From assembly GCA_039621445.1 (NCBI GenBank), contig CP154954.1:17514589-17578588 (forward strand): DNA of 64,000 nt, in the 5' to 3' direction. Position numbers and translations under genes: made by a program. This DNA is from Euglena gracilis (lineage: Eukaryota). Below, piece after piece: positions 3,120 through 64,000 of the stretch. Below the pieces are notes generated by a model that was not told the origin of the DNA, ran no database searches, and saw only the letters and a list, made by a program, of their open reading frames with translations. Every line of letters begins with the position of its first letter. Within the stretch, counting starts at the first letter, position 1.

Positions 3120-21787
<18,668 letters not shown>

Positions 21788-38787: not shown

Positions 38788-41035
38788 ATTTTTTTGGGAC
38801 ATTGCAACCCACCTATAAGAAACCCCCGGGCCGTTTTTTTTGGAAATCCACCTATAAGAAATGTTTTTCTTATAGGTGGAGGGTTTAAGTTTTGAAGTGC
38901 TGAAGTTAAAAATGCAGATGGGATGCTAATGCTAATACTGGACAGATTTTACACACAGAAGGAAGGCAGAACGTGGTTGAGATTTGCCCAGCATTTTTAA
39001 AAACGGTGGCCCCGGACCCGGTCAGTTGAGAAAGCGGTGATCATTTGGTTTGAGTCACACGTGAGTATCAAACCAGCATCATGCGACGACCAATCCAATT
39101 GCTCTAAATGCCTGGCCAATTGGTGCTCCCTTTTGGGCTAAGAAAAAAACTGTCCCCCGGATTTGCGGTTGTCTAACCGATTGCTTTTTGTTGGGTGCAT
39201 GTTTTTTTTTTCTAGCCCAAGCTGCTTGCAGGCATTGCTGGGCTTTCGATTGGTCCGTCGCATGACCTTTGGATACTCCTTAGAAGAACGTGCTGTTTCC
39301 TTGATCACAGCTTCCTTCAAGTCGATGCTGGAGTCAGATTGGGGGAGCCGCCAAAAGGAGCACAAAGGGCGGTTAAGGGATGGGGTGTGTGGGCAATTAT
39401 TTGTCTTTGTCATATTGGCGTTCATCCACGTCAAAGAGCTCGTCAGTCCCTGACCCACGCGGCTTGATCTGCTGACGCCGCTCTTTCACCCGACACCCCC
39501 GCCTATCTACCCCCTGGGCCCCCAAGCTCGCCAGCTCACAAAGGTTATTTAAACGTGGGAAGGGGACAGTTTTTTTTTATACTAGACCAAAAGGGTAAGA
39601 ACCCAACAAGTTTTCCCCCCTGGGTGCAACTTCACCTCCTCCCCTGGAGTTGTTTTTGTGCACCGGGGCACCAATCAGCTTTTGCCGTTCGGCATTGGGT
39701 CCACAGAACAGCACCACTCCCAACCGGCCCCCAGCGGGTGGGCAGGAGGGTGAGGGAGGCGTTCCAGGCATTTAGAGCAATTGGATTGGTCGTCATGATG
39801 CACGTGTGACTCAAACCAAATGATCACAGCTTTCTCAACTGACCGGATCCAGGGCCACTGTTTTTGAAGTGCCGGGCAAGCCACAGCTGCCCGTGATCCC
39901 CGTTGATGGGGTTGCGCGGTATCGATTGAGTTTTGCCGGCAACTGTTCAAGTGGACAACTTGACCGTTGGAGGATGTGCTCAGCAGTGGACAACCAACAA
40001 GTTTTCCCCCCTGGGTTGCAAATTACCTCCTCCGCTGGAGGTGTTTTGTGCACCGGGGCACCAATCAGCTTTGCCGTTCTGCATTGGTCACAGAACCGCA
40101 CCCTCCCACCGGCCCAGCGGTGGGCAGAGGGTGATTGGGAGGGGGCGTTCGTTTCAGGCGTTTCCGGGATGGAACAAAACGGAATCCGGGGAAATCCGCA
40201 ACAACTGCTCCCTGCCCCCAAACAACAACACCCGCACACAACAACCGCAGCCTCCCTCCTGCAAATTTTTCCGGGCATTGGCATTGAAGTGTTGGGTTGG
40301 GCGGGGTGTTTGGGGAAGAGGAGATGTTACTGGTGGCTGAAGGTCTGGCAGTGGCCGCGCGCAGTTGGGGATAAGGGCCCGTCAACTGAGTGGTGTGTGG
40401 AGCCCGCTCTGGCATTTGCTGGGCTTCCGTGATGACCAACATGTGCGCTTAGACATTGCTTTGATTTCCCTTTGATGCAGTTCCGTCGAGTCTGATGGGG
40501 CCGTCACAGCATTTGGGGAGCCTGTCCAAAGCACAAAGGGGGGGCGAAGTTCAGATAAGGGTGGTGTGCCTGGGCAATCAAACCAGTTGGGCAGCCGTTG
40601 TCCATAGGGGGCTGTTCATAAACACGTCAAAGAGCTCGTCCAGTCCCTGCCCCACGGCGGCATCTCTCGCCGCTCTTTTTTCCAATCCGACAACCCCCCA
40701 AATGCATTTAGAGCAATTGGATTGGTCGTCGCATGATGCTGGTTTGATACTCACGTGTGACTCAAAGCAAATGACCACAGCTTTCTCAACTGACCGGGTC
40801 CGGGGCCACTGTTTTTTTTAAAATGCTGGGCAAATCTCAACCCACGTTCTGCCTTCCTTCTGTGTGTAAAATCTGTCCAGTATTAGCATTAGCATCCCAT
40901 CTGCATTTTTAACTTCAGCACTTCAAAACTTAAACCCCGCCCCACCTATAAGAAACCCGTTTCTTATAGGTGGGTTTCCAAAAAAAACGGCCCGGGGGTT
41001 TCTTATGGCATGTCCCAAAAAAATTGTGGGAAAAC
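38788..41035. other. Inversion centre: unique ~200-bp segment in both orientations around degenerate array-1 sequence
   Basis: ~38790-39110 is the reverse complement of ~40700-41035. The sequence between them is an indel-rich, scrambled version of the array-1 unit. Confidence 0.8.
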
Positions 41036-44000: not shown

Positions 44001-45033
44001 TGAGAAAGCTGTGATCATTTGGTTTGAGTCACACGTGAGTATCAAACCAGCATCATGCGACGACCAATCCAATTGCTCTAAATGCCTGGCCAACTGGTGC
44101 TCCCTTTTGGGCTAGGAAAAAAAAAACTGTCCCCTTCCCACGTTTTAAATAAACTTTGGTGAGCTGGCGAGCTGGGGGGCCCAGGGGGTAGATAGGGGGG
44201 GTGTCGGGTGGAAAGAGCGGCGCAGCAGATGCAGCCGTGGGGCAGACTGGACGAGCTCCTTTGACATGGTATGGACAGCCACATATGACCAACGGCTGCC
44301 CAACTGGGTGATTGCCCAGGCACACCCATCCCTTATCTGAACTTCGCCCCTTTCGTGCCTTTTGGCAGGCTCCCAATGCTGACGGCCCAGTCAGACTCGA
44401 CGGAACTGCATCACAGGAATCAGCAGTCTAAGGAGCAAAGGTTGGTCATCGAAGCCCAGCAAACTGCCAGAGCTGGGCTTTCACACACCACTCAGGTTGA
44501 CCGGGGCCGGTGGCAGGGTGCGGTTCTGTGACCCAATGCAGAACGGCAAAGCCGATTGGTGCCCCGGTGCACAAAACACCGGGGCACCAACACTGACCTC
44601 CAGCGGAGGAGGTAATTTGCAACCCGGGGGGAAAACTTGTTGGTTGTCCACTGCTGAGCACATCCTCCAACGGTCAAGTTGTCCACTTGAACAGTTGCCG
44701 GCAAAACTCAACCGATACCGCGGAAACCCCATCAACGGGGATCACGGGCAGCTGTGGCTTGCCCGGCACTTCAAAAACAGTGGCCCTGGATCCGGTCAGT
44801 TGAGAAAGCTGTGATCATTTGGTTTGAGTCACACGTGAGTATCAAACCAGCATCATGCGACGACCAATCCAATTGCTCTAAATGCCTGGCCAACTGGTGC
44901 TCCCTTTTGGGCTAGGAAAAAAAAAAACTGTCCCCTTCCCACATTTCCCCCGAAGTTTGGTGGGGTGGGGAGCGGGGGGGCCTAGGGGGGAGATTGGGGG
45001 GTGTCGGGTGGAAAGAGCGGCGCAGCAGATGCA
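41036..45033 (-). repeat. Inverted continuation of array 1 (partial, long, short, long, short, partial units)
   Basis: Reverse complement of the array-1 unit. The unit order mirrors ~34.7-38.7 kb. Confidence 0.93.
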
Positions 45034-45942
45034 ACACGACCAAACAGGTGTTCCAGGGGCCTCAGTAGCATCGACCAAGTTGAGATGTGCATCACAGAGC
45101 AGAAGACTTGTGGGTTGGCATCATCGAGCCCCCATTCGGGTTGGTCACCACACTGCCTCCCCAACCCCCCTTCCCGCCTGGGTCTGGGTCTGTGTCTCTG
45201 CGCCTGTGTGCGTGCGCACCTGTTGTGCTGTGCGATTTCGTGTGCGCTAAAAGCGAAACCAATGCCGACCCCGGCCCAGCCCACACCCCACCCAACCGGG
45301 AACAATCCTCCGGAGGGGCAGCTCAGACTTCTCTGAGGTTTGACCATCCATCATGCGATGACTCTGGGGACTTGGGGGTCATCACCGCTGCCAGGAGGAC
45401 ACCATCCGTCCGCCCCCGCCAACACCAATTCAGCAACTGCCCGTCCCCCAACCCTTCGTCCCAGGTTGGGCTCCCTCCAAACCCAGTTTGGCCCGTGTGG
45501 ACACCCTTTGTTGACACCATTGCTGTTCTGCATTCATGTAAACATCCACGTCACAATCTCGCCCCATTTTCCGGCCAGCAGCACCATCGGATTGGCGTGC
45601 TGGAGGATATTAAAGCTGCCACCCCCCCCCACATCAACCCACAGCGTGTTTGTGTTTGTGGGTGTGGATGAATATGCTTTTTTGCATGAAAAAATCTCAC
45701 CACCAACACGCAGTTGGTGGTGAGCCAACCACCCATGGCCCTGCCTCCTGCTCGCTGGAGTGACTGCGGCCAAAACAGCCGCCATTCCACGCAGCCACAC
45801 CCCGCGGCCAGCCCTCTCAACCCCCATTTTCCAGCCAGCAACGTCACCCGTCCAATGCGCAGGCTGTAACAGAAATGGATGGGCCCCAATCAGCCTTGAA
45901 AAAAAATCAACTGTGCGGGAACACGACCAAACAGGTGTTCCA

Positions 45943-46019
45943 GGGGCCTCAGTAGCATCGACCAAGTTGAGATGTGCATCACAGAGCAGAAGACTTGTGG
46001 GTTGGCATCATCGAGCCCC
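45943..46019 (-). ncRNA. Box C/D snoRNA candidate 2A (representative copy)
   Basis: Minus strand reads GGGGCT-cg-ATGATGC(C)-caacccacaagtctt-CTGC(D'-like)-tctg-TGATGC(C')-acatctcaacttggtcgatgcta-CTGA(D)-GGCCCC. A 6-bp terminal stem directly flanks the boxes. Confidence 0.75.
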
Positions 46020-46203
46020 CATGCGGGTTGGTCACCACATCTCCTCCCCAACCCCCCTTCCCGCCTGGGTCTGGGTCTGTGTCTCTGCGCCCGTGTGCGT
46101 GCGCACCTGTTGTGCTGTGCGATTTCGTGTGCGCTAAAAGCGAAACCAATGCCGACCCCGGCCCAGCCCACACCCCACCCAACCGGGAACAATCCTCCGG
46201 GGG

Positions 46204-46279
46204 GGCAGCTCAGACTTCTCTGAGGTTTGACCATCCATCATGCGATGACTCTGGGGACTTGGGGGTCATCACCGCTGCC
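46204..46279 (-). ncRNA. Box C/D snoRNA candidate 2B (representative copy)
   Basis: Minus strand reads GGCAGC-g-GTGATGA(C)-cccccaagtccc-CAGA(D')-gtcatcgc-ATGATGG(C')-atggtcaaacctcagagaagt-CTGA(D)-GCTGCC. Canonical boxes plus a perfect 6-bp terminal stem. Confidence 0.88.
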
Positions 46280-46440
46280 AGGAGGACACCATCCGTCCGC
46301 CCCCGCCAACACCAATTCAGCAACTGCCCGTCCCCCAACCCTTCGTCCCAGGTTGGGCTCCCTCCAAACCCAGTTTGGCCCGTGTGGACACCCTTTGTTG
46401 ACACCATTGCTGTTCTGCATTCATGTAAACATCCACGTCA

Positions 46441-46504
46441 CAATCTCGCCCCATTTTCCGGCCAGCAGCACCATCGGATTGGCGTGCTGGAGGATATTAA
46501 GGCT
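46441..46504 (-). ncRNA. Single-hairpin AGA-box (H/ACA-like) snoRNA candidate (representative copy)
   Basis: Minus strand reads gcctta-atatcct-ccagca...tgctgg-ccggaaaa-tggggc-g-AGA-ttg. It has a lower stem, an internal pocket, an upper stem, and AGA 15 nt below the upper stem. Folded by eye only. Confidence 0.45.
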
Positions 46505-49500
46505 GCCACCCCCCCCCCCCACATCAACCCACAACCACACAGTGTTTGTGGGTGTGGATGAATATGCTTTTTTGCGTGAAAAAAATCTCACCACCAACAC
46601 GCAGTTGGTGGTGAGCCAACCACCCATGGCCCTGCCTCCTGCTCGCTGGAGTGACTGCGGCCAAAACAGCCGCCATTCCACGCAGCCACACCCCGCGGCC
46701 AGCCCTCTCAACCCCCATTTTCCAGCCAGCAACGTCACCCGTCCAATGCGCAGGCTGTAACAGAAATGGATGGGCCCCAATCAGCCTTGAAAAAAAAATC
46801 ACCTGTCGTGCGGGAACACGACCAAACAGGTGTTCCAGGGGCCTCAGTAGCATCGACCAAGTTGAGATGTGCATCACAGAGCAGAAGACTTGTGGGTTGG
46901 CATCATCGAGCCCCCATGCGGGTTGGTCACCACATCTCCTCCCCAACCCCCCTTCCCGCCTGGGTCTGGGTCTGTGTCTCTGCGCCCGTGTGCGTGCGCA
47001 CCTGTTGTGCTGTGCGATTTCGTGTGCGCTAAAAGCGAAACCAATGCCGACCCCGGCCCAGCCCACACCCCACCCAACCGGGAACAATCCTCCGGGGGGG
47101 CAGCTCAGACTTCTCTGAGGTTTGACCATCCATCATGCGATGACTCTGGGGACTTGGGGGTCATCACCGCTGCCAGGAGGACACCATCCGTCCGCCCCCG
47201 CCAACACCAATTCAGCAACTGCCCGTCCCCCAACCCTTCGTCCCAGGTTGGGCTCCCTCCAAACCCAGTTTGGCCCGTGTGGACACCCTTTGTTGACACC
47301 ATTGCTGTTCTGCATTCATGTAAACATCCACGTCACAATCTCGCCCCATTTTCCGGCCAGCAGCACCATCGGATTGGCGTGCTGGAGGATATTAAGGCTG
47401 CCCCCCCCCCCCCCCCACATCAACCCACAACCACACAGTGTTTGTGGGTGTGGATGAATATGCTTTTTTGCGTGAAAAAATCTCACCACCAACACGCAGT
47501 TGGTGGTGAGCCAACCACCCATGGCCCTGCCTCCTGCTCGCTGGAGTGACTGCGGCCAAAACAGCCGCCATTCCACGCAGCCACACCCCGCGGCCAGCCC
47601 TCTCAACCCCCATTTTCCAGCCAGCAACGTCACCCGTCCAATGCGCAGGCTGTAACAGAAATGGATGGGCCCCAATCAGCCTTGAAAAAAAAAAATCACC
47701 TGTCGTGCGGGAACACGACCAAACAGGTGTTCCAGGGGCCTCAGTAGCATCGACCAAGTTGAGATGTGCATCACAGAGCAGAAGACTTGTGGGTTGGCAT
47801 CATCGAGCCCCCATGCGGGTTGGTCACCACATCTCCTCCCCAACCCCCCTTCCCGCCTGGGTCTGGGTCTGTGTCTCTGCGCCTGTGTGCGTGCGCACCT
47901 GTTGTGCTGTGCGATTTCGTGTGCGCTAAAAGCGAAACCAATGCCGACCCCGGCCCAGCCCACACCCCACCCAACCGGGAACAATCCTCCGGGGGGCAGC
48001 TCAGACTTCTCTGAGGTTTGACCATCCATCATGCGATGACTCTGGGGACTTGGGGGTCATCACCGCTGCCAGGAGGACACCATCCGTCCGCCCCCGCCAA
48101 CACCAATTCAGCAACTGCCCGTCCCCCAACCCTTCGTCCCAGGTTGGGCTCCCTCCAAACCCAGTTTGGCCCGTGTGGACACCCTTTGTTGACACCATTG
48201 CTGTTCTGCATTCATGTAAACATCCACGTCACAATCTCGCCCCATTTTCCGGCCAGCAGCACCATCGGATTGGCGTGCTGGAGGATATTAAGGCTGCCAC
48301 CCCCCCCCCCCCACATCAACCCACAACCACACAGTGTTTGTGGGTGTGGATGAATATGCTTTTTTTCGTGAAAAAAATCTCACCACCAACACGCAGTTGG
48401 TGGTGAGCCAACCACCCATGGCCCTGCCTCCTGCTCGCTGGAGTGACTGCGGCCAAAACAGCCGCCATTCCACGCAGCCACACCCCGCGGCCAGCCCTCT
48501 CAACCCCCATTTTCCAGCCAGCAACGTCACCCGTCCAATGCGCAGGCTGTAACAGAAATGGATGGGCCCCAATCAGCCTTGAAAAAAAAATCACCTGTCG
48601 TGCGGGAACACGACCAAACAGGTGTTCCAGGGGCCTCAGTAGCATCGACCAAGTTGAGATGTGCATCACAGAGCAGAAGACTTGTGGGTTGGCATCATCG
48701 AGCCCCCATGCGGGTTGGTCACCACATCTCCTCCCCAACCCCCCTTCCCGCCTGGGTCTGGGTCTGTGTCTCTGCGCCCGTGTGCGTGCGCACCTGTTGT
48801 GCTGTGCGATTTCGTGTGCGCTAAAAGCGAAACCAATGCCGACCCCGGCCCAGCCCACACCCCACCCAACCGGGAACAATCCTCCGGGGGGCAGCTCAGA
48901 CTTCTCTGAGGTTTGACCATCCATCATGCGATGACTCTGGGGACTTGGGGGTCATCACCGCTGCCAGGAGGACACCATCCGTCCGCCCCCGCCAACACCA
49001 ATTCAGCAACTGCCCGTCCCCCAACCCTTCGTCCCAGGTTGGGCTCCCTCCAAACCCAGTTTGGCCCGTGTGGACACCCTTTGTTGACACCATTGCTGTT
49101 CTGCATTCATGTAAACATCCACGTCACAATCTCGCCCCATTTTCCGTCGGATTGGCGTGCTGGAGGATATTAAGGCTGCCACCCCCCCCCCCCACATCAA
49201 CCCACAACCACACAGTGTTTGTGGGTGTGGATGAATATGCTTTTTTGCGTGAAAAAAATCTCACCACCAACACGCAGTTGGTGGTGAGCCAACCACCCAT
49301 GGCCCTGCCTCCTGCTCGCTGGAGTGACTGCGGCCAAAACAGCCGCCATTCCACGCAGCCACACCCCGCGGCCAGCCCTCTCAACCCCCATTTTCCAGCC
49401 AGCAACGTCACCCGTCCAATGCGCAGGCTGTAACAGAAATGGATGGGCCCCAATCAGCCTTGAAAAAAAAAATCACCTGTCGTGCGGGAACACGACCAAA

Positions 49501-52500
49501 CAGGTGTTCCAGGGGCCTCAGTAGCATCGACCAAGTTGAGATGTGCATCACAGAGCAGAAGACTTGTGGGTTGGCATCATCGAGCCCCCATGCGTGTGGT
49601 CACCTGTTGTGCTGTGCGATTTGGTTTGCGCTAAAAGCGAAACCAATGCCGACCCCGGCCCAGCCCACACCCCACCCAACCGGGAACAATCCTCCGGGGG
49701 GCAGCTCAGACTTCTCTGAGGTTTGACCATCCATCATGCGATGACTCTGGGGACTTGGGGGTCATCACCGCTGCCAGGAGGACACCATCCGTCCGCCCCC
49801 GCCAACACCAATTCAGCAACTGCCCGTCCCCCAACCCTTCGTCCCAGGTTGGGCTCCCTCCAAACCCAGTTTGGCCCGTGTGGACACCCTTTGTTGACAC
49901 CATTGCTGTTCTGCATTCATGTAAACATCCACGTCACAATCTCGCCCCATTTTCCGGCCAGCAGCACCATCGGATTGGCGTGCTGGAGGATATTAAGGCT
50001 GCCACCCCCCCCCCACACCAACCCACAACCACACAATGTCTGTGGGTGTGGATGAATGTGGTTTTTTTGCATGAAAAAATCTCACCACCAACACGCAGTT
50101 GGCGGTGAGCCAACCACCCATGGCCCTGCCTCCTGCTCGCTGCAGTGACTGTGGCCAAAACAGCCGCCATTCCACGCAGCCACACCCCGCGGCCAGCCCT
50201 CTCAACCCCCATTTTCCAGCCAGCAACGTCACCCGTCCAATGCGCAGGCTGTAACAGAAATGGATGGGCCCCAATCAGCCTTGAAAAAAAACCACCTGTC
50301 ATGCAGGAAGACAACCAAACAGGTGTTCCAGGGGCCTCAGTAGCATCGACCAAGTTGAGATGTGCATCACAGAGCAGAAGACTTGTGGGTTGTCATCATC
50401 GAGCCCCCATGCGGGTTGGTCACCACATCTCCTCCCCAACCCCCCTTCCCGCCTGGGTCTGGGTCTGTGTCTCTGCGCCCGTGTGCGTGCGCACCTGTTG
50501 TGCTGTGCGATTTGGTGTGCGCTAAAAGCGAAACCAATGCCGACCCCGGCCCAGCCCACACCCCACCCAACCGGGAACAATCCTCCGGGGGGCAGCTCAG
50601 ACTTCTCTGAGGTTTGACCATCCATCATGCGATGACTCTGGGGACTTGGGGGTCATCACCGCTGCCAGGAGGACACCATCCGTCCGCCCCCGCCAACACC
50701 AATTCAGCAACTGCCCGTCCCCCAACCCTTCGTCCCAGGTTGGGCTCCCTCCAAACCCAGTTTGGCCCGTGTGGACACCCTTTGTTGACACCATTGCTGT
50801 TCTGCATTCATGTAAACATCCACGTCACAATCTCGCCCCATTTTCCGGCCAGCAGCACCATCGGATTGGCGTGCTGGAGGATATTAAGGCTGCCACCCCC
50901 CCCCCACACCAACCCACAACCACACAGTGTTTGTGGGTGTGGAGGAATATGCTTTTTTTTCGTGAAAAAAATCTCACCACCAACACGCAGCTGGTGGTGA
51001 GCCAACCACCCATGGCCCTGCCTCCTGCTCGCTGGAGTGACTGCGGCCAAAACAGCCGCCATTCCACGCAGCCACACCCCGCGGCCAGCCCTCTCAACCC
51101 CCATTTTCCAGCCAGCAACGTCACCCGTCCAATGCGCAGGCTGTAACAGAAATGGATGGGCCCCAATCAGCCTTGAAAAAAAAACCACCTGTTGTGCGGG
51201 AACACGACCAAACAGGTGTTCCAGGGGCCTCAGTAGCATCGACCAAGTTGAGATGTGCATCACAGAGCAGAAGACTTGTGGGTTGGCATCATCGAGCCCC
51301 CATGCGGGTTGGTCACCACACCTCCTCCCCAACCCCCCTTCCCGCCTGGGTCTGGGTCTGTGTCTCTGCGCCTGTGTGCGTGCGCACCTGTTGTGCTGTG
51401 CGATTTCGTGTGCGCTAAAAGCGAAACCAATGCCGACCCCGGCCCAGCCCACACCCCACCCAACCGGGAACAATCCTCCGGGGGGCAGCTCAGACTTCTC
51501 TGAGGTTTGACCATCCATCATGCGATGACTCTGGGGACTTGGGGGTCATCACCGCTGCCAGGAGGACACCATCCGTCCGCCCCCGCCAACACCAATTCAG
51601 CAACTGCCCGTCCCCCAACCCTTCGTCCCAGGTTGGGCTCCCTCCAAACCCAGTTTGGCCCGTGTGGACACCCTTTGTTGACACCATTGCTGTTCTGCAT
51701 TCATGTAAACATCCACGTCACAATCTCGCCCCATTTTCCGGCCAGCAGCACCATCGGATTGGCGTGCTGGAGGATATTAAGGCTGCCACCCCCCCCCCCC
51801 ACATCAACCCACAACCACACAGTGTTTGTGGGTGTGGATGAATATGCTTTTTTGCGTGAAAAAAATCTCACCACCAACACGCAGTTGGTGGTGAGCCAAC
51901 CACCCATGGCCCTGCCTCCTGCTCGCTGGAGTGACTGCGGCCAAAACAGCCGCCATTCCACGCAGCCACACCCCGCGGCCAGCCCTCTCAACCCCCATTT
52001 TCCAGCCAGCAACGTCACCCGTCCAATGCGCAGGCTGTAACAGAAATGGATGGGCCCCAATCAGCCTTGAAAAAAAAATCACCTGTCGTGCGGGAACACG
52101 ACCAAACAGGTGTTCCAGGGGCCTCAGTAGCATCGACCAAGTTGAGATGTGCATCACAGAGCAGAAGACTTGTGGGTTGGCATCATCGAGCCCCCATGCG
52201 GGTTGGTCACCACATTGTGCTGTGCGATTTCGTGTGCGCTAAAAGCGAAACCAATGCCGACCCCGGCCCAGCCCACACCCCACCCAACCGAGAACAATCC
52301 TCCGGGGGGGCAGCTCAGACTTCTCTGAGGTTTGACCATCCATCATGCGATGACTCTGGGGACTTGGGGGTCATCACCGCTGCCAGGAGGACACCATCCG
52401 TCCGCCCCCGCCAACACCAATTCAGCAACTGCCCGTCCCCCAACCCTTCGTCCCAGGTTGGGCTCCCTCCAAACCCAGTTTGGCCCGTGTGGACACCCTT

Positions 52501-55500
52501 TGTTGACACCATTGCTGTTCTGCATTCATGTAAACATCCACGTCACAATCTCGCCCCATTTTCCGGCCAGCAGCACCATCGGATTGGCGTGCTGGAGGAT
52601 ATTAAGGCTGCCACCCCCCCCCCACATCAACCCACAACCACACAGTGTTTGTGGGTGTGGATGAATATGCTTTTTTGCGTGAAAAAATCTCACCACCAAC
52701 ACGCAGTTGGTGGTGAGCCAACCACCCATGGCCCTGCCTCCTGCTCGCTGGAGTGACTGCGGCCAAAACAGCCGCCATTCCACGCAGCCACACCCCGCGG
52801 CCAGCCCTCTCAACCCCCATTTTCCAGCCAGCAACGTCACCCGTCCAATGCGCAGGCTGTAACAGAAATGGATGGGCCCCAAAAAACAAAAAAAAAAAAA
52901 TCACCTGTCGTGCGGGAACACGACCAAACAGGTGTTCCAGGGGCCTCAGTAGCATCGACCAAGTTGAGATGTGCATCACAGAGCAGAAGACTTGTGGGTT
53001 GGCATCATCGAGCCCCCATGCGGATGCGGGTTGGTCACCACATCTCCTCCCCAACCCCCCTTCCCGCCTGGGTCTGGGTCTGTGTCTCTGCGCCCGTGTG
53101 CGTGCGCACCTGTTGTGCTGTGCGATTTCGTGTGCGCTAAAAGCGAAACCAATGCCGACCCCGGCCCAGCCCACAGACCACCAACCCGCGAACAATCCAC
53201 CGGGGGGCAGCTCAGACTTCTCTGAGGTTTGACCATCCATCATGCGATGACTCTGGGGACTTGGGGGTCATCACCGCTGCCAGGAGGACACCATCCGTCC
53301 GCCCCCGCCAACACCACTTCAGCAACTGCCCGTCCCCCAACCCTTCGTCCCAGGTTGGGCTCCCTCCAAACCCCTCCTGGCCCGTGTGGACACCCTTTGT
53401 TGACACCATTGCTGTTCTGCATTCATGTAAACATCCACGTCACAATCTCGCCCCATTTTCCGGCCAGCAGCACCATCGGATTGGCGTGCTGGAGGATATT
53501 AAGGCTGCCACCCCCCCCCCCCACAACCACACAGTGTTTGTGGGTGTGGATGAATATGCTTTTTTGCGTGAAAAAAATCTCACCACCAACACGCAGTTGG
53601 TGGTGAGCCAACCACCCATGGCCCTGCCTCCTGCTCGCTGGAGTGACTGCGGCCAAAACAGCCGCCATTCCACGCAGCCACACCCCGCGGCCAGCCCTCT
53701 CAACCCCCATTTTCCAGCCAGCAACGTCACCCGTCCAATGCGCAGGCTGTACCTCCCCCCCCCAAGCCCAATGAACACTAAGGTGACAATCTAGACGGTC
53801 CGAACGGGGGGCGTTCATTGGACATGGGTGTTCACTAATCCTGTCACCTTCTCAGTGTAGCCTTGAAACGTGCATAAACAGTGCACTCCAGGGCAGAACG
53901 GGAAGGCCTGGTGGGGGGGTCGACCCCCACCCCCCCCCCCCCCCTTCACCGATTTTTGCGCGGGTGTGGTGCGATTTATTTCTTTGGCGCAAAACTGAAA
54001 CCAATGGACCCCAAGGCCCAGCCCACACCCCAAAAACAAAATTTGAGAAAACGTTTGAATATTTGGAGGTGTGAAAAATTGGGGTTTGGGGGGGGGGGGG
54101 ACCCCTATATGGGTCCCAAAATGGGTCACCACCGCGGAATCAGGTCCAAAAAATTGCCCGTGCCCCCAAAATTCAGAGGTTGGGCGACCCCCCCAAACCC
54201 AGTTTGGCCCCCACACATACGGAAGCCTGACTGGAATCAGTACCGTGACCTAAATCAGAATCACTGGCATCCTCACAACAGCAACAAAGGAATATTTCCT
54301 TGCCGACGCAAAAAAAGTATATATGGTGACAATCTACCGAGGGGGGGAAAAATTTCGTGCCAGAGAAATTTTGCGGCGACAAACCACACGCGGTTCCTTT
54401 GTGGAAATATGCGGGATTTTTTTGCTGTGAAAAAATGGCCTGAAAAATACATGGACAAAAACGCGGGAGCCAATGGCCCTGTATTTCGCTGGAGTGACTG
54501 CGGCCAAAACAGCCGCCATTCCGCAGCGCACACCCCCCCCCGGTCTCAACCCCCATTTTCCAGCCAGCAACGTGTCCAATGCGCAGGCTGTAACAGAAAT
54601 GGATGGGCCCCAATCAGCCTTGAAAAAAAAATCACCTGTCGTGCGGGAACACGAACACGAACACGACCAAACAGGTGTTCCAGGGGCCTCAGTAGCATCG
54701 ACCAAGTTGAGATGTGCATCACAAAGCAGAAGACTTGTGGGTTGGCATCATCGAGCCCCCATGCGGGTTGGTCACCACATCTCCTCCCCAACCCCGCTTC
54801 CCGCCTGGGTCTGGGTCTGTGTCTCTGCGCCCGTGTGCGTGCGCACCTGTTGTGCTGTGCGATTTCGTGTGCGCTAAAAGCGAAACCAATGCCGACCCCG
54901 GCCCAGCCCACACCCCACCCAACCGGGAACAATCCTCCGGGGGGGGCAGCTCAGACTTCTCTGAGGTTTGACCATCCATCATGCGATGACTCTGGGGACT
55001 TGGGGGTCATCACCGCTGCCAGGAGGACACCATCCGTCCGCCCCCGCCAACACCAATTCAGCAACTGCCCGTCCCCCAACCCTTCGTCCCAGGTTGGGCT
55101 CCCTCCAAACCCAGTTTGGCCCGTGTGGACACCCTTTGTTGACACCATTGCTGTTCTGCATTCATGTAAACATCCACGTCACAATCTCGCCCCATTTTCC
55201 GGCCAGCAGCACCATCGGATTGGCGTGCTGGAGGATATTAAGGCTGCCACCCCCCCCCCCCACATCAACCCACAACCACACAGTGTTTGTGGGTGTGGAT
55301 GAATATGCTTTTTTGCGTGAAAAAAATCTCACCACCAACACGCAGTTGGTGGTGAGCCAACCACCCATGGCCCTGCCTCCTGCTCGCTGGAGTGACTGCG
55401 GCCAAAACAGCCGCCATTCCACGCAGCCACACCCCGCGGCCAGCCCTCTCAACCCCCATTTTCCAGCCAGCAACGTCACCCGTCCAATGCGCAGGCTGTA

Positions 55501-58500
55501 ACAGAAATGGATGGGCCCCAATCAGCCTTGAAAAAAAATAACCTGTCGTGCGGGAACACGACCAAACAGGTGTTCCAGGGGCCTCAGTAGCATCGACCAA
55601 GTTGAGATGTGCATCACAGAGCAGAAGACTTGTGGGTTGTCATCATCGAGCCCCCATGCGGGTTGGTCACCACATCTCCTCCCCAACCCCCCTTCCCGCC
55701 TGGGTCTGGGTCTGTGTCTCTGCGCCCGTGTGCGTGCGCACCTGTTGTGCTGTGCGATTTCGTGTGCGCTAAAAGCGAAACCAATGCCGACCCCGGCCCA
55801 GCCCACACCCCACCCAACCGGGAACAATCCTGCGGGGGGCAGCTCAGACTTCTCTGAGGTTTGACCATCCATCATGCGATGACTCTGGGGACTTGGGGGT
55901 CATCACCGCTGCCAGGAGGACACCATCCGTCCGCCCCCGCCAACACCAATTCAGCAACTGCCCGTCCCCCAACCCTTCGTCCCAGGTTGGGCTCCCTCCA
56001 AACCCAGTTTGGCCCGTGTAGACACCCTTTGTTGACACCATTGCTGTTCTGCATTCATGTAAACATCCACGTCACAATCTCGCCCCATTTTCCGGCCAGC
56101 AGCACCATCGGATTGGCGTGCTGGAGGATATTAAGGCTGCCACCCCGCCCCCCCCACATCAACCCACAACCACACAGTGTTTGTGGGTGTGGATGAATGT
56201 GCTTTTTTGCGTGAAAAAATCTCACCACCAACACGCAGTTGGTGGTGAGCCAACCACCCATGGCCCTGCCTCCTGCTCGCTGGAGTGACTGCGGCCAAAA
56301 CAGCCGCCATTCCACGCAGCCACACCCCGCGGCCAGCCCTCTCAACCCCCATTTTCCAGCCAGCAACGTCACCCGTCCAATGCGCAGGCTGTAACAGAAA
56401 TGGATGGGCCCCAATCAGCCTTGAAAAAAAAATCACCTGTCGTGCGGGAACACGACCAAACAGGTGTTCCAGGGGCCTCAGTAGCATCGACCAAGTTGAG
56501 ATGTGCATCACAGAGCAGAAGACTTGTGGGTTGGCATCATCGAGCCCCCATGCGGGTTGGTCACCACATCTCCTCCCCAACCCCCCTTCCCGCCTGGGTC
56601 TGGGTCTGTGTCTCTGCGCCCGTGTGCGTGCGCACCTGTTGTGCTGTGCGATTTCGTGTGCGCTAAAAGCGAAACCAATGCCGACCCCGGCCCAGCCCAC
56701 ACCCCACCCAACCGGGAACAATCCTCCGGGGGGCAGCTCAGACTTCTCTGAGGTTTGACCATCCATCATGCGATGACTCTGGGGACTTGGGGGTCATCAC
56801 CGCTGCCAGGAGGACACCATCCGTCCGCCCCCGCCAACACCAATTCAGCAACTGCCCGTCCCCCAACCCTTCGTCCCAGGTTGGGCTCCCTCCAAACCCA
56901 GTTTGGCCCGTGTGGACACCCTTTGTTGACACCATTGCTGTTCTGCATTCATGTAAACATCCACGTCACAATCTCGCCCCATTTTCCGGCCAGCAGCACA
57001 CATCGGATTGGAGTGCTGGAGGATATTAAGGCTTCCACCCCCCCCCCCCACATCAACCCACAACCACACAGTGTTTGTGGGTGTGGATGAATATGCTTTT
57101 TTGCAAAAAAAAAATCTCACCACCAACACGCAGTTGGTGGTGAGCCAACCACCCATGGCCCTGCCTCCTGCTCGCTGGAGTGACTGCGGCCAAAACAGCC
57201 GCCATTCCACGCAGCCACACCCCGCGGCCAGCCCTCTCAACCCCCATTTTCCAGCCAGCAACGTCACCCGTCCAATGCGCAGGCTGTAACAGAAATGGAT
57301 GGGCCCCAATCAACATTAAAAAAAAAATCACCTGTCGTGCGGGAACACGACCAAACAGGTGTTCCAGGGGCCTCAGTAGCATCGACCAAGTTGAGATGTG
57401 CATCACAGAGCAGAAGACTTGTGGGTTGGCATCATCGAGCCCCCATGCGGGTTGGTCACCACATCTCCTCCCCAACCCCGCTTCCCGCCTGGGTCTGGGT
57501 CTGTGTCTCTGCGCCCGTGTGCGTGCGCACCTGTTGTGCTGTGCGATTTCGTGTGCGCTAAAAGCGAAACCAATGCCGACCCCGGCCCAGCCCACACCCC
57601 ACCCAACCGGGAACAATCCTCCGGGGGGCAGCTCAGACTTCTCTGAGGTTTGACCATCCATCATGCGATGACTCTGGGGACTTGGGGGTCATCACCGCTG
57701 CCAGGAGGACACCATCCGTCCGCCCCCGCCAACACCAATTCAGCAACTGCCCGTCCCCCAACCCTTCGTCCCAGGTTGGGCTCCCTCCAAACCCAGTTTG
57801 GCCCGTGTGGACACCCTTTGTTGACACCATTGCTGTTCTGCATTCATGTAAACATCCACGTCACAATCTCGCCCCATTTTCCGGCCAGCAGCACCATCGG
57901 ATTGGCGTGCTGGAGGATATTAAGGCTGCCACCCCCCCCCCCCACACCAACCCACAACCACACAGTGTTTGTGGGTGTGGATGAATATGCTTTTTTTGCG
58001 TGAAAAAATCTCACCACCAACACGCAATTGGTGGTGAGCCAACCACCCATGGCCCTGCCTCCTGCTCGCTGGAGTGACTGCGGCCAAAACAGCCGCCATT
58101 CCACGCAGCCACACCCCGCGGCCAGCCCTCTCAACCCCCATTTTCCAGCCAGCAACGTCACCCGTCCAATGCGCAGGCTGTAACAGAAATGGATGGGCCC
58201 CAATCAGCCTTGAAAAAAAATCAACTGTGCGGGAACACGACCAAACAGGTGTTCCAGGGGCCTCAGTAGCATCGACCAAGTTGAGATGTGCATCACAGAG
58301 CAGAAGACTTGTGGGTTGGCATCATCGAGCCCCCATGCGGGTTGGTCACCACATCTCCTCCCCAACCCCCCTTCCCGCCTGGGTCTGGGTCTGTGTCTCT
58401 GCGCCTGTGTGTGTGCGCACCTGTTGTGCTGTGCGATTTCGTGTGCGCTAAAAGCGAAACCAATGCCGACCCCGGCCCAGCCCACACCCCACCCAACCGG

Positions 58501-61500
58501 GAACAATCCTCCGGGGGGGCAGCTCAGACTTCTCTGAGGTTTGACCATCCATCATGCGATGACTCTGGGGACTTGGGGGTCATCACCGCTGCCAGGAGGA
58601 CACCATCCGTCCGCCCCCGCCAACACCAATTCAGCAACTGCCCGTCCCCCAACCCTTCGTCCCAGGTTGGGCTCCCTCCAAACCCAGTTTGGCCCGTGTG
58701 GACACCCTTTGTTGACACCATTGCTGTTCTGCATTCATGTAAACATCCACGTCACAATCTCGCCCCATTTTCCGGCCAGCAGCACCATCGGATTGGCGTG
58801 CTGGAGGATATTAAGGCTGCCACCCCCCCCCCCACATCAACCCACAACCACACAGTGTTTGTGGGTGTGGATGAATATGCTTTTTTTGCGTGAAAAAATC
58901 TCACCACCAACACGCAGTTGGTGGTGAGCCAACCACCCATGGCCCTGCCTCCTGCTCGCTGGAGTGACTGCGGCCAAAACAGCCGCCATTCCACGCAGCC
59001 ACACCCCGCGGCCAGCCCTCTCAACCCCCATTTTCCAGCCAGCAACGTCACCCGTCCAATGCGCAGGCTGTAACAGAAATGGATGGGCCCCAATCAGCCT
59101 TGAAAAAAAAATCACCTGTCGTGCGGGAACACGACCAAACAGGTGTTCCAGGGGCCTCAGTAGCATCGACCAAGTTGAGATGTGCATCACAGAGCAGAAG
59201 ACTTGTGGGTTGGCATCATCGAGCCCCCATGCGGGTTGGTCACCACATCTCCTCCCCAACCCCCCTTCCCGCCTGGGTCTGGGTCTGTGTCTCTGCGCCC
59301 GTGTGCGTGCGCACCTGTTGTGCTGTGCGATTTCGTGTGCGCTAAAAGCGAAACCAATGCCGACCCCGGCCCAGCCCACACCCCACCCAACCGGGAACAA
59401 TCCTCCGGGGGGCAGCTCAGACTTCTCTGAGGTTTGACCATCCATCATGCGATGACTCTGGGGACTTGGGGGTCATCACAGCTGCCAGGAGGACACCATC
59501 CGTCCGCCCCCGCCAACACCAATTCAGCAACTGCCCGTCCCCCAACCCTTCGTCCCAGGTTGGGCTCCCTCCAAACCCAGTTTGGCCCGTGTGGACACCC
59601 TTTGTTGACACCATTGCTGTTCTGCATTCATGTAAACATCCACGTCACAATCTCGCCCCATTTTCCGGCCAGCAGCACCATCGGATTGGCGTGCTGGAGG
59701 ATATTAAGGCTGCCACCCCCCCCCCCACATCAACCCACAACCACACAGTGTTTGTGGGTGTGGATGAATATGCTTTTTTTGCGTGAAAAAATCTCACCAC
59801 CAACACGCAATTGGTGGTGAGCCAACCACCCATGGCCCTGCCTCCTGCTCGCTGGAGTGACTGCGGCCAAAACAGCCGCCATTCCACGCAGCCACACCCC
59901 GCGGCCAGCCCTCTCAACCCCCATTTTCCAGCCAGCAACGTCACCCGTCCAATGCGCAGGCTGTAACAGAAATGGATGGGCCCCAATCAGCCCTGAAAAA
60001 AAAATCACCTGTCGTGCGGGAACACGACCAAACAGGTGTTCCAGGGGCCTCAGTAGCATCGACCAAGTTGAGATGTGCATCACAGAGCAGAAGACTTGTG
60101 GGTTGGCATCATCGAGCCCCCATGCGGGTTGGTCACCACATCTCCTCCCCAACCCCCCTTCCCGCCTGGGTCTGGGTCTGTGTCTCTGCGCCTGTGTGTG
60201 TGCGCACCTGTTGTGCTGTGCGATTTCGTGTGCGCTAAAAGCGAAACCAATGCCGACCCCGGCCCAGCCCACACCCCACCCAACCGGGAACAATCCTCCG
60301 GGGGGGCAGCTCAGACTTCTCTGAGGTTTGACCATCCATCATGCGATGACTCTGGGGACTTGGGGGTCATCACCGCTGCCAGGAGGACACCATCCGTCCG
60401 CCCCCGCCAACACCAATTCAGCAACTGCCCGTCCCCCAACCCTTCGTCCCAGGTTGGGCTCCCTCCAAACCCAGTTTGGCCCGTGCACCCTTTGTTGACA
60501 CCATTGCTGTTCTGCATTCATGTAAACATCCACGTCACAATCTCGCCCCATTTTCCGGCCAGCAGCACCATCGGATTGGCGTGCTGGAGGATATTAAGGC
60601 TGCCACCCCCCCCCCCCACATCAACCCACAACCACACAGTGTTTGTGGGTGTGGATGAATATGCTTTTTTTGCGTGAAAAAATCTCACCACCAACACGCA
60701 GTTGGTGGTGAGCCAACCACCCATGGCCCTGCCTCCTGCTCGCTGGAGTGACTGCGGCCAAAACAGCCGCCATTCCACGCAGCCACACCCCGCGGCCAGC
60801 CCTCTCAACCCCCATTTTCCAGCCAGCAACGTCACCCGTCCAATGCGCAGGCTGTAACAGAAATGGATGGGCCCCAATCAGCCTTGAAAAAAAAATCACC
60901 TGTCGTGCGGGAACACGACCAAACAGGTGTTCCAGGGGCCTCAGTAGCATCGACCAAGTTGAGATGTGCATCACAGAGCAGACGACTTGTGGGTTGGCAT
61001 CATCGAGCCCCCATGCGGGTTGGTCACCACGTCTCCTCCCCAACCCCCCTTCCCGCCTGGGTCTGGGTCTGTGTCTCTGCGCCCGTGTGCGTGCGCACCT
61101 GTTGTACTGTGCGGTTTTGTGTGCGCTAAAAGCGAAACCAATGCCGACCCCGGCCCAGCCCACACCCCACCCAACCGGGAACAATCCTCCGGGGGGCAGC
61201 TCAGACTTCTCTGAGGTTTGACCATCCATCATGCGATGACTCTGGGGACTTGGGGGTCATCACCGCTGCCAGGAGGACACCATCCGTCCGCCCCCGCCAA
61301 CACCAATTCAGCAACTGCCCGTCCCCCAACCCTTCGTCCCAGGTTGGGCTCCCTCCAAACCCAGTTTGGCCCGTGTGGACACCCTTTGTTGACAACATTG
61401 CTGTTCTGCATTCATATAAACATCCACGTCACAATCTCGCCCCATTTTCCGGCCAGCAGCACCATCGGATTGGCGTGCTGGAGGATATTAAGGCTGCCAC

Positions 61501-63344
61501 CCCCACACCAACCCACAGCCACACAGTGTTTGTGGGTGTGGATGAATATGCTTTTTTGCGTGAAAAAATCTCACCGCCAACACGCAGTTGGTGGTGAGCC
61601 AACCACCCATGGCCCTGCCTCCTGCTCGCTGGAGTGACTGCGGCCAAAACAGCCGCCATTCCACGCAGCCACACCCCACGGCCAGCCCTCTCAACCCCCA
61701 TTTTCCAGCCAGCAACGTCACCCGTCCAATGCACAGGCTGTAACAGAAATGGATGGGCCCCAATCAGCCTTGAAAAAAAAATCACCTGTCGTGCGGGAAC
61801 ACGACCAAACAGGTGTTCCAGGGGCCTCAGTAGCATCGACCAAGTTGAGATGTGCATCACAGAGCAGACGACTTGTGGGTTGGCATCATCGAGCCCCCAT
61901 GCGGGTTGGTCACCACGTCTCCTCCCCAACCCCCCTTCCTGCCTGGGTCTGGGTCTGTGTCTCTGCGCCCGTGTGCGTGCGCACCTGTTGTGCTGTGCGA
62001 TTTCGTGTGCGCTAAAAGCGAAACCAATGCCGACCCCGGCCCAGCCCACACCCCACCCAACCGGGAACAATCCTCCGGGGGGCAGCTCAGACTTCTCTGA
62101 GGTTTGACCATCCATCATGCGATGACTCTGGGGACTTGGGGGTCATCACCGCTGCCAGGAGGACACCATCCGTCCGCCCCCGCCAACACCAATTCAGCAA
62201 CTGCCCGTCCCCCAACCCTTCGTCCCAGGTTGGGCTCCCTCCAAACCCAGTTTGGCCCGTGTGGACACCCTTTGTTGACACCATTGCTGTTCTGCATTCA
62301 TGTAAACATCCACGTCACAATCTCGCCCCATTTTCCGGCCAGCAGCACCATCGGATTGGCGTGCTGGAGGATATTAAGGCTGCCACCCCCCCCCCCCCAC
62401 ACCAACCCACAACCACACAGTGTTTGTGGGTGTGGATGAATATGCTTTTTTTGCGCGAAAAAATCTCACCACCAACTCGCAGTTGGTCCGGCCAAAACAG
62501 CCGCCATTCCACGCAGCCACACCCCGCGGCCAGCCCTCTCAACCCCCATTTTCCAGCCAGCAACGTCACCCGTCCAATGCGCAGGCTGTAACAGAAATGG
62601 ATGGGCCCCAATCAGCCTTGAAAAAAAAACCACCTGTCGTGCGGGAACACGACCAAACAGGTGTTCCAGGGGCCTCAGTAGCATCGACCAAGTTGAGATG
62701 TGCATCACAGAGCAGACGACTTGTGGGTTGGCATCATCGAGCCCCCATGCGGGTTGGTCACCACGTCTCCTCCCCAACCCCCCTTCCCGCCTGGGTCTGG
62801 GTCTGTGTCTCTGCGCCCGTGTGCGTGCGCACCTGTTGTGCTGTGCGATTTCGTGTGCGCTAAAAGCGAAACCAATGCCGACCCTGGCCCAGCCCACACC
62901 CCACCCAACCGGGAACAATCCTCCGGGGGGGGGGGGCAGCTCAGACTTCTCTGAGGTTTGACCATCCATCATGCGATGACTCTGGGGACTTGGGGGTCAT
63001 CACCGCTGCCAGGAGGACACCATCCGTCCGCCCCCGCCAACACCACTTCAGCAACTGCCCGTCCCCCAACCCTTCGTCCCAGGTTGGGCTCCCTCCAAAC
63101 CCAGTTTGGCCCGTGTGGACACCCTTTGTTGACACCATTGCTGTTCTGCATTCATATAAACATCCAAGTCACAATCTCGCCCCATTTTCCGGCCAGTGTC
63201 TCTACCTTTTAGTCATGGATAATAATGCTGTCAGAGTATAGTCACCCTCTACTCCCATCCATGCAACTGCCATTTGTCTTTTTTTGAAACAGTTTTCGGC
63301 CTTTTTGTATTCTCTCCAAAAAGAATCTCTGCAGCAGTTCGCAC

Positions 63345-63523
63345 CTCATCATAGTTGAATTTCTCGTCCCCTGTCAAGGCACCGAACTTCTTGAGGGTGT
63401 CCTTCTCCAGCTCCCCCTGCTTGCCCTTGGAGTCATAAGAATAGAAACCCTTGCCCGTCTTCGTCCCCAGGTTGGGGGTCTTGGCCATGGCGTCAAGCAC
63501 GGAGTTCAACACAAAGCGTGGGC
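63345..63523 (-). CDS. Internal exon of a 3-hydroxyacyl-CoA dehydrogenase / multifunctional beta-oxidation enzyme (C-terminal domain)
   Basis: Translation GPRFVLNSVLDAMAKTPNLGTKTGKGFYSYDSKGKQGELEKDTLKKFGALTGDEKFNYDE contains the LGxKTGxGFYxY motif of 3HCDH C-terminal domains. Acceptor ttttgccccAG and donor GAG|GTGCG. GC3-rich codons. Confidence 0.8.
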
Positions 63524-63584
63524 CTGGGGCAAAAATGGTTTTACTTCCACACTATGTGGCGGCAGCCAACAAAATACAACGCAC

Positions 63585-63752
63585 AATATAATATAATATA
63601 ATATAATATACTATACTATAATATATTATCCTATAACACAATAGAATGTAATAATATAATATAATATAATATAACAAAATGTAAGATAATTAATGTAATA
63701 CAATTAATGTAATGCAATATAATATAATATGGTATAATATAACATAATATAA
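63585..63752. repeat. Degenerate (AATAT)n microsatellite, intronic
   Basis: Directly visible AT-rich pentamer repeats. Confidence 0.9.
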
Positions 63753-64000
63753 CAGCAGCCAATCAGTCATTTTTGGCTGGTGGAGACTAAGGGTATCGCG
63801 CAGGCATTCAATTAACTGTGCTACATAATCGGCAAACATGTATTGCGAGAATGAATGAAACTTGTATGAATAGAACTTAGGCGGTGCATCTCGCACTTAA
63901 ACTTTTTTTGGTTGATTTGCAGAAATCGACCAATTTTTTGATTTAGGCGCCGGTGTTGCAAGAGGTGAGGGCGAGAGGCGACAGGCGGACGATGAATCCA

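Follow-up and report, generated by a model that had tools for sequence, protein, structure and literature searches.

A tandem array of probable box C/D guide snoRNA genes from Euglena gracilis

Introduction

The snoRNA genes of Euglena are described as clustered, multi-copy and polycistronic (PMC7671301). Clustering and multiple copies are shared with the trypanosomatids (PMC7671301, PMC2784804, PMC2613932), and the snoRNA genes of trypanosomes are likewise polycistronic (PMC2613932), as far as the portions of these papers cited here extend. In Euglena gracilis, tandemly repeated clusters of modification-guide snoRNA genes were reported by Moore and Russell (2012, Mol Genet Genomics), a study cited here through part of PMC7671301. 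The trypanosomatid clusters, in the sections of PMC2613932 drawn on here, are repeated, contain box C/D RNAs mixed with single-hairpin AGA-box RNAs, and give polycistronic transcripts from which these RNAs are processed.

The array described here lies in a 64-kb stretch of E. gracilis DNA, hereafter the window. Like the known E. gracilis clusters, so far as the cited portion portrays them, it consists of head-to-tail repeats of a unit in which several guide RNA genes share one strand; the predicted box C/D RNAs are compact, with degenerate candidate internal boxes and small differences among copies (isoforms), and single-hairpin pseudouridine guides may be mixed in. It differs from those clusters, on the same partial basis, in that all of its roughly 18 kb, with 20 units and one relic, can be read through, in its long spacers and in adjoining a second array. 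Compared with the trypanosomatid clusters in the cited sections of PMC2613932, the AGA-box member is a candidate only, and two C/D genes occupy about 890 bp.

Tandem snoRNA arrangement has already been described for Euglena, and the array is a known kind of locus. What is new here is the relatedness of two D' guides, an AGA-box candidate, a hairpin with a U run in 19 copies, and an adjoining second snoRNA-like array. The packing reported for Euglena snoRNA clusters is tighter than that of the present unit of about 893 bp. Near-identical box C/D genes in tandem are also found in mammals, where the SNORD115 and SNORD116 arrays comprise dozens of them in kilobase-sized units; those genes are intronic in a spliced, imprinted host transcript and encode orphan guides, whereas host exons are not evident in the present array.

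Results

Organization of the array

The array is a head-to-tail block of about 18 kb, in which intact units are mostly 886 to 897 bp long (about 890 bp). At its low end, 45033/45034, the array gives way to another repeat family, and its high end, at about 63196, is the onset of unit similarity.

45034..63196, minus strand, whole tandem array (20 intact units and 1 relic unit)
46204..47098, minus strand, reference unit (895 bp)
53760..54480, minus strand, relic unit within a 1739-bp interval; both cassettes have lost their C and D boxes

In the order of the RNA strand, the reference unit consists of spacer, cassette A, a psi1-like segment, a hairpin with a U run, a psi2 candidate and cassette B. 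A repeat search of the window with a 300-nt reference returned 20 copies between 45313 and 63230, with start-to-start spacings of 810 to 897 bp and one gap of 1739 bp. Measured from one cassette B end to the next, the first ten unit lengths are 854, 886, 890, 894, 893, 891, 895, 894, 893 and 1739 bp, and the last nine are 897, 825, 893, 891, 810, 895, 896, 895 and 887 bp. The preliminary description had counted about 21 copies; 20 units are intact, and the twenty-first is a decayed relic in the 1739-bp interval, colinear with a whole unit at approximately 50 to 60% identity; the box motifs of the relic have gone. That description had overlooked the relic, the relatedness of the D' guides and the other structured candidates within the "spacers".

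In four of four public runs, from four studies, a contig joins the unit end back to the unit start (887 bp); the sequences compared were contigs of uncertain library type, and one run may be the window's own source.

Each intact unit carries two cassettes with box C/D architecture

Each intact unit contains two cassettes of 76 to 78 nt, A and B, in which C and D boxes are enclosed by a terminal stem of 6 bp; together they leave about 740 of roughly 893 bp per unit unaccounted for. The copies are as follows.

46204..46279, minus, cassette B, reference copy (76 nt), sub-threshold snoU61 match
62935..63010, minus, cassette B
62081..62156, minus, cassette B
61195..61270, minus, cassette B
60305..60380, minus, cassette B
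59411..59486, minus, cassette B, sole base-changed copy (at position 7, after the stem and before the C box)
58518..58593, minus, cassette B
57627..57702, minus, cassette B
56732..56807, minus, cassette B
55838..55913, minus, cassette B
54945..55020, minus, cassette B
53206..53281, minus, cassette B
52309..52384, minus, cassette B
51484..51559, minus, cassette B
50591..50666, minus, cassette B
49700..49775, minus, cassette B
48890..48965, minus, cassette B
47995..48070, minus, cassette B
47099..47174, minus, cassette B
45317..45392, minus, cassette B, last in array
45943..46020, minus, cassette A, reference copy (77-78 nt)
62669..62745, minus, cassette A
61821..61897, minus, cassette A
60935..61011, minus, cassette A
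60044..60120, minus, cassette A
59151..59227, minus, cassette A
58257..58333, minus, cassette A
57367..57443, minus, cassette A
56472..56548, minus, cassette A
55578..55654, minus, cassette A
54683..54759, minus, cassette A
52940..53016, minus, cassette A
52118..52194, minus, cassette A
51224..51300, minus, cassette A
50331..50407, minus, cassette A
49512..49588, minus, cassette A
48630..48706, minus, cassette A
47735..47811, minus, cassette A
46838..46914, minus, cassette A
45056..45132, minus, cassette A, the array's last gene, 22 nt ahead of the neighbouring repeat family

Exact-motif counts on the minus strand gave 20 matches each for the A 5' end, the A 3' end and the B 3' end and 19 for the B 5' end, the twentieth being one base off; none of the four motifs was matched on the plus strand of the window. 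The C box of cassette B agrees with the consensus RUGAUGA at 7/7 positions, and that of cassette A at 6/7 (7/7 in 2 of 20 copies); the D box is CUGA in both. The terminal stem of cassette A includes one G-U pair. All three elements, C box, D box and 6-bp stem, are kept in 20/20 copies of each cassette, and both the stems and the 12-nt D-guide string quoted in the preliminary description were found in the sequence. The candidate D' and C' boxes are degenerate in both cassettes, the best candidates agreeing at 3/4 (D') and 5/6 (C') consensus positions of what are short motifs. When aligned at the D' box, the D' guides of the two cassettes are related (9/12 positions). None of 200 shuffles folded as well as cassette B (z, -2.9), and the predicted fold of cassette A was no better than its shuffles (z, -0.3).

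A scan for a C box and a D box flanked by a stem of 4, 5 or 6 bp gave 40 minus-strand matches, all between 44 and 64 kb, with none on the plus strand and none elsewhere in the window. Dinucleotide shuffles of the unit (1,000 for each stem length) gave on average 0.023, 0.007 and 0.004 matches for stems of 4, 5 and 6 bp, respectively, and two or more matches occurred in 0/1000.

Guide similarities and candidate targets

The Rfam search of the whole window gave no family at or above its gathering score, and no rRNA or SL RNA was located there. The similarities that rose above noise in the array and the adjoining array were to box C/D snoRNA families only. Cassette B was most similar to snoU61 (RF01170), with 24.6 bits, far short of the 55 bits set as gathering score, and with an E value of 0.016 that holds for a 2-kb search alone and would be near 0.5 if scaled to the whole window. 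The alignment covers both boxes and the D guide, and across the two copies searched there are two further matches within its clan that overlap with it at lower scores. Cassette B resembles the U61/SNORD61/snR55 family (RF01170, clan CL00067) in class, in size, in the places of the boxes and terminal stem, and in the alignment of the D guide. It differs in that its 5' half has no match to the family and in that the alignment is gapped by one base immediately ahead of the D box, so that, with an unchanged register of rRNA pairing, the selected nucleotide would lie one base further 3'.

In human and yeast, members of the U61 group have their targets in 18S rRNA. The D guide of cassette B is, most likely, the local counterpart of a U61-type guide for small-subunit rRNA, to judge from this alignment. 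The target tentatively suggested for it in the preliminary description, a conserved small-subunit rRNA region that would correspond to the U61 target, agrees with the snoU61 match. A search for guide-complementary targets yielded chance matches only in a metagenome scan and no matches in scans of genome and viral contigs.

We consider it unlikely that the cassettes are genuine box C/D RNAs of which one or both serve other than as rRNA methylation guides, whether as orphans, as guides for snRNA, spliced-leader or other RNAs, or in processing or as chaperones. The absence of Rfam similarity for cassette A would fit such a role, as would the related D' guides, at least one of which may be redundant or drifting. 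However, the D guide of cassette B aligns with that of an rRNA-directed family, and most box C/D RNAs with a long, unbroken guide beside a canonical D box target rRNA, which counts against this explanation.

Variation among copies

Nineteen of the 20 copies of cassette B are identical, as are 14 of the 20 copies of cassette A, which has three variants; one of these, present in 2/20 copies, changes the seventh C-box position to the consensus base. An alignment of 18 of the 21 segments, from which the 1739-bp interval and the piece at either end of the array were omitted, contained 6 substitutions and no indel cells in the 2,754 cassette cells, and 145 substitutions and 265 indel cells in the 13,644 spacer cells. 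The earlier contrast between invariant cassettes and indel-collecting spacers is borne out only in part, as long spacer stretches (alignment columns 351 to 450 and 651 to 835) are invariant to the same degree as the cassettes. Variation clusters in homopolymer runs, in two deletion variants and in columns 501 to 600. Because these spacer stretches match the cassettes in invariance, the identity among copies reflects mostly homogenization of the array and not selection on the cassettes, and identity alone is no proof of selection.

The same invariance of the spacers would fit an array that was snoRNA derived but a silent or weakly expressed amplified satellite, whose cassettes remained intact solely through its youth or homogenization, with the working copies elsewhere in the genome. 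Such arrays are prone to expansion, and the relic unit indicates that copies can die in place. Nevertheless, boxes and stems are intact in all 20 units with indels confined to the regions outside the cassettes, the changed C-box position shifts towards the consensus, and none of the differences between the public contigs and the window (11 substitution places and 8 indel rows) falls inside cassette A or B. These observations make a silent satellite improbable, and we rank it below a role other than rRNA methylation.

Two further explanations are negligible. The proposal that the box-like motifs arose by chance in a G+C-rich satellite has the shortness of the motifs in its favor and nothing more; it is refuted, as far as sequence statistics go, by the comparison with shuffles, none of which gave the two matches seen per unit, and by the empty opposite strand and remainder of the window. 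That the units are protein coding or part of a mobile element is suggested by stop-free frames of 130 to 270 amino acids on both strands, which are expected at 58% G+C; frame lengths vary among units, unit-length differences are not multiples of three, 0/5 frames reached the Pfam cut-off (one weak match scored 16.3 bits against 27), and the unit lacks terminal repeats, its internal repeats being limited to one direct repeat of 19 nt and two short palindromes able to form hairpins.

Other structured elements and the neighbouring array

Three further elements lie between the cassettes of the reference unit.

46441..46507, minus strand, psi2, candidate single-hairpin AGA-box pseudouridine guide, reference copy; weak Rfam H/ACA match
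46703..46778, minus strand, psi1-like segment ending in AGA
46581..46615, minus strand, 12-bp hairpin with a 5-nt loop, then a U run (19 copies)

The psi2 candidate is present in 18 full-length copies. The rules for trypanosomatid AGA-box guides, in the cited part of PMC2613932, specify a length of 57 to 91 nt, a stem I of 5 to 8 bp, 5 to 11 nt on the 5' side of the pocket, a perfect stem II beside the pocket, 13 to 16 nt from pocket to AGA, and an AGA 3 nt from the 3' end. Within these rules, the segment 46504-46441 is 64 nt long with a stem I of 6 bp and pocket sides of 7 and 8 nt; stem II is 6 bp, the distance is 15, an A lies one base before stem I, and the fold has a z score of -2.4. The same structure filter gave a mean of 0.65 matches in shuffled units, with at least one match in 46% of 300 shuffles. 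The psi2 structure is no rarer than chance, and psi2 is a candidate only. Of 19 nt in the 3' half of psi2, 18 recur in the psi1-like segment, whose fold does not surpass those of shuffles.

A second snoRNA-like array adjoins the present one directly and in the same orientation. One of its cassettes has a below-threshold match to SNORD104 in Rfam.

Discussion

The array is very probably a minus-strand tandem cluster of box C/D methylation-guide snoRNA genes, as the preliminary description had proposed from the same sequence. This assignment is supported at the level of sequence by a box and stem architecture far beyond chance, the restriction to a single strand, near-identical cassettes over 20 copies, a relic unit that has lost its boxes, and above-noise Rfam similarities to box C/D snoRNA families. 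Weighing against it are the sub-threshold Rfam scores, the absence of both Rfam similarity and a better-than-shuffled fold for cassette A, the degeneracy of the D' and C' candidates, the invariant spacer stretches, and the loose packing, with about 740 bp of each unit outside the two genes.

We infer the transcription, processing, protein binding, targets and methylation activity of the cassette RNAs from these features. The minus strand would be transcribed, probably yielding one long precursor with multiple genes; this precursor may extend into the next snoRNA-like array, which has the same orientation. Nucleases would trim the precursor to RNAs of 76 to 78 nt, shielded by core proteins on the kink-turn that the C and D boxes would form beside the terminal stem. 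Through the sequence immediately upstream of its D box, and possibly through a second one upstream of the degenerate D' box, each RNA would then pair with a stable RNA, which is most likely rRNA. The methyltransferase fibrillarin would 2'-O-methylate the nucleotide of this target that faces the fifth position of the guide. High copy number would provide dosage, and concerted evolution would keep the copies alike.

Less likely than not, though conceivable, is an operon of mixed guide RNAs in place of two C/D genes with junk between them. In each unit the two C/D genes would then be accompanied by an AGA-box guide (46504-46441 and its copies), its decaying paralogue (46778-46703) and the conserved hairpin with its U run (46615-46581). 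In such an operon the hairpin and U run would punctuate or end the long precursor or direct its cutting. To our knowledge, no promoter of euglenid snoRNA clusters has been defined. Should the hairpin and U run end transcription, every unit would be transcribed on its own, from psi2 through cassette B, cassette A and psi1 to the stop.

Results

Organization and extent of the array. The preliminary description had claimed that the minus-strand block near the end of the window is a tandem cluster, and a repeat search of the window bore this out: a 300-nt reference recovered 20 head-to-tail copies across 45313-63230, with start-to-start distances of 810 to 897 bp and a single exception of 1739 bp. 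TRF had overlooked the array because its longest period is 500. The parts of the array referred to below are as follows.

45034-63196, minus strand: tandem array, units mostly of 886-897 bp
46204-47098, minus strand: reference unit
45943-46020, minus strand: reference copy of cassette A, a box C/D guide RNA-like gene
46204-46279, minus strand: reference copy of cassette B, the second such gene of the unit

Exact-motif counting on the minus strand gave 20 occurrences each of the 5' end of cassette A, the 3' end of cassette A and the 3' end of cassette B, and 19 of the 5' end of cassette B, copy 20 of which carries a single-base difference; none of the four motifs occurred on the plus strand. 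Successive cassette B ends lay 854 to 897 bp apart in 16 intervals; the remaining three intervals measured 825, 810 and 1739 bp. The longest is occupied by a decayed unit (approximately 54480-53760, minus strand) that matches a complete unit colinearly, at roughly 50 to 60% identity, and has lost the box motifs of both cassettes. The array thus consists of 20 intact units and 1 dead unit, and because all the other units are near-identical, this relic has escaped homogenization. At its high end, at approximately 63196, the array begins within a unit, and its low end is the joint at 45033/45034, from which another repeat family takes over. The GC skew of the plus strand is -0.15 to -0.22 across 46000-64000, and the RNA-sense strand of the array is therefore G-rich.

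Two box C/D-like cassettes per unit. Our scan required a C box, any base being allowed at its last position, with CUGA 40 to 95 nt downstream and a flanking stem. It picked out exactly two cassettes in every unit, both with 6-bp stems, and none on the opposite strand; across the whole 64-kb window the same scan gave 40 matches on the minus strand, all within the array, and none on the plus strand. When one unit was dinucleotide-shuffled 1000 times at each stem setting, matches averaged 0.023 with a 4-bp stem, 0.007 with a 5-bp stem and 0.004 with a 6-bp stem, and no shuffle contained two matches.

Cassette B is 76 nt long, with a full-consensus C box, CUGA, a 6-bp stem and 21 nt from C' to D, and its fold was better than those of all 200 shuffles (z = -2.9). 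Cassette A is 77 to 78 nt long, with a C box matching at 6 of 7 positions, CUGA, a 6-bp stem that includes one G-U pair and a 23-nt stretch ahead of D; its fold showed no advantage over shuffles (z = -0.3). The internal boxes of both cassettes are degenerate, the best D' matching 3 of 4 consensus positions and the best C' 5 of 6. Aligned at the D' box, the D' guides of the two cassettes agree at 9 of 12 positions, and the nucleotide that each is predicted to select is a C, in a short target context common to both. The relatedness of these guides points to a single gene that would have been duplicated within the unit long ago.

Sequence variation among units. It had also been proposed that the cassettes are nearly invariant and that indels collect in the spacers. 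Cassette B is identical in 19 of 20 copies and cassette A in 14 of 20. The variants of cassette A have the second base before D' changed (three copies), the last C-box base converted to consensus (two copies) or one base changed between D' and C' (one copy). We aligned 18 of the 21 segments, omitting the 1739-bp interval and the piece at either end of the array. The 2754 cassette cells of this alignment held 6 substitutions and were free of indel cells; the 13644 spacer cells held 145 substitutions, with 265 indel cells. The invariance of the cassettes was therefore upheld, but the contrast with the spacers was only partial, since spacer alignment columns 351-450 and 651-835 are as invariant as the cassettes. 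Much of the identity between units therefore reflects homogenization of the array and is not proof of selection.

Other structured candidates in the unit. A 64-nt segment at 46504-46441 (minus strand) has every structural feature that PMC2613932 lists for trypanosomatid single-hairpin AGA-box RNAs, with a stem I of 6 bp, a pocket whose sides measure 7 and 8 nt, a perfect stem II of 6 bp, 15 nt from pocket to AGA and the AGA 3 nt from the end. Its fold had a z score of -2.4, with 2 of 200 shuffles equally good. The AGA-box structural scan itself was not above chance, shuffled units averaging 0.65 matches, and the segment is therefore a lead rather than a finding. A second segment (46778-46703, minus strand) agrees at 18 of 19 nt with part of this candidate's 3' half and has AGA at its end; its fold was no better than those of shuffles, and the folds of the stretches 46628-46705 and 46280-46425 likewise did not surpass them. 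The same structural scan returned two ACA-box matches, at 46499-46421 and 46452-46380. One further element was a hairpin.

46581-46615 and 18 other copies, minus strand: hairpin (12-bp stem, 5-nt loop; fold z = -2.9) ahead of a U run

The stem of this hairpin is altered in five copies, four of which (at three distinct sites) still pair through G-U on the minus-strand RNA and one of which breaks a pair. This pattern is no more than suggestive.

Occurrence of the unit in public sequence data. At least 59% of the words sampled from two units were present in 20 runs from 18 studies, 19 of which carry one organism label and 1 another. All four runs compared, each from a different study, contain a contig in which a unit end leads straight back into a unit start; these contigs are of uncertain library type, and one of the runs may be the source of the assembly itself. 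Tandem copies of the unit are thus not confined to the present assembly. Comparison of the contigs with the window showed 11 substitution places and 8 indel rows, none within the two cassettes or the two AGA segments and 2 within the hairpin, with 45631-45714 uncovered in two runs and hence uninformative. Contig depth in the public runs is no guide to copy number.

Family similarity and predicted target of cassette B. No Rfam family reached its gathering score anywhere in the window. In a permissive Rfam scan of 45000-47000, the sole matches below an E value of 0.1 were those of cassette B to snoU61 (24.6 bits against a gathering score of 55; E = 0.016), two lower-scoring overlapping matches from the same clan, across the two B copies of this interval, being left out of the listing; cassette A matched nothing in Rfam. 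The snoU61 alignment spans the terminal stem, C box, C', D guide and D box of cassette B, with a one-base gap immediately ahead of the D box. If rRNA were to pair as it does with snoU61, the choice of nucleotide would shift by one base in the 3' direction. The 18S stretch recognized by U61 is conserved, and its counterpart is the putative target of the cassette B D guide; this proposal and the snoU61 match are consistent with each other.

Scanning metagenomes with 14 nt from the guide region of cassette B gave at least 115 loci. Among those listed, no match was longer than 17 nt and all four of the universal small-subunit rRNA motifs sought were absent, and we regard these loci as chance matches. 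A gapped pattern combining the guide-target core with a universal 18S motif had no match in genome contigs or viral contigs, and the 14-mer had no occurrence in the literature full text searched.

Neighborhood of the array. The repeat family that adjoins the array at its low end has units of 974 and 802 bp and is present in two blocks.

22190-38787, plus strand: main array of a second snoRNA-like tandem family, approximately 18 units
41031-45033, minus strand: approximately 4.5 units of the second family, adjoining the array in the same orientation

A box C/D-like cassette of this family (e.g., 43482-43416) matched Rfam SNORD104 below threshold (20.1 bits, E = 0.09). The units of the two families have no extended similarity, their best match being 15 nt. 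With a second family adjoining the array and bearing its own C/D-like cassette, the window looks like a snoRNA super-cluster. Between the two blocks, 38790-41030 holds approximately 2.2 kb of scrambled, degenerate second-family units flanked, as judged by eye, by inverted terminal sequences of approximately 200 bp (38790-38990 and 40830-41030); this interval could mark where an inversion joins the two orientations, or it could be an insertion bounded by terminal inverted repeats.

A tRNA search of the window found none. Stop-free frames within the array differ from unit to unit, and none of five reached the Pfam cutoff. A 100-amino-acid stop-free frame of ordinary protein-like composition lies approximately 50 nt 5' of the array (63249-63551, minus strand). 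It matched no Pfam family at an E value of 0.01 or better, which leaves its assignment as the end of a hydroxyacyl-CoA dehydrogenase unsupported; it could be an exon or gene fragment. An AT-rich 5-bp microsatellite (63585-63752) is also found just 5' of the array, and elsewhere the window contains a 77-bp satellite (12038-15776; 48 copies, 94% matches) and a (TG)40 run (18372-18451).

Discussion

The best reading of this structure is a polycistronic snoRNA gene array. The minus strand would be transcribed into a polycistronic precursor, which would be trimmed to the protein-protected box C/D cores, and the RNAs so released would guide fibrillarin-dependent 2'-O-methylation. Cassette B most likely acts on small-subunit rRNA.

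Euglenid rRNA is among the most heavily modified known and needs a very large set of guide RNAs, whose genome-level supply has so far been known mainly from PCR-sized fragments. Published accounts describe Euglena and trypanosomatid snoRNA genes as clustered, multi-copy and polycistronic (PMC7671301, PMC2784804, PMC2613932); they also give 200 or more 2'-O-methyl sites for Euglena rRNA (PMC2613932) and over 100 further E. gracilis snoRNAs identified by RNA-seq (PMC7200641). The clustered multi-copy arrangement of our array is thus already documented in those organisms, and the array leaves the understanding of such loci unchanged. It can be read from end to end, displaying its true scale of 20 units, its homogenization, a dead unit in place and its contact with a second array. 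In the available part of the 2024 chromosome-level E. gracilis genome paper (PMC11252322), the noncoding RNA classes are miRNA, tRNA, rRNA and snRNA, and the word snoRNA does not occur; for this class, not listed there, the array provides raw material for annotation.
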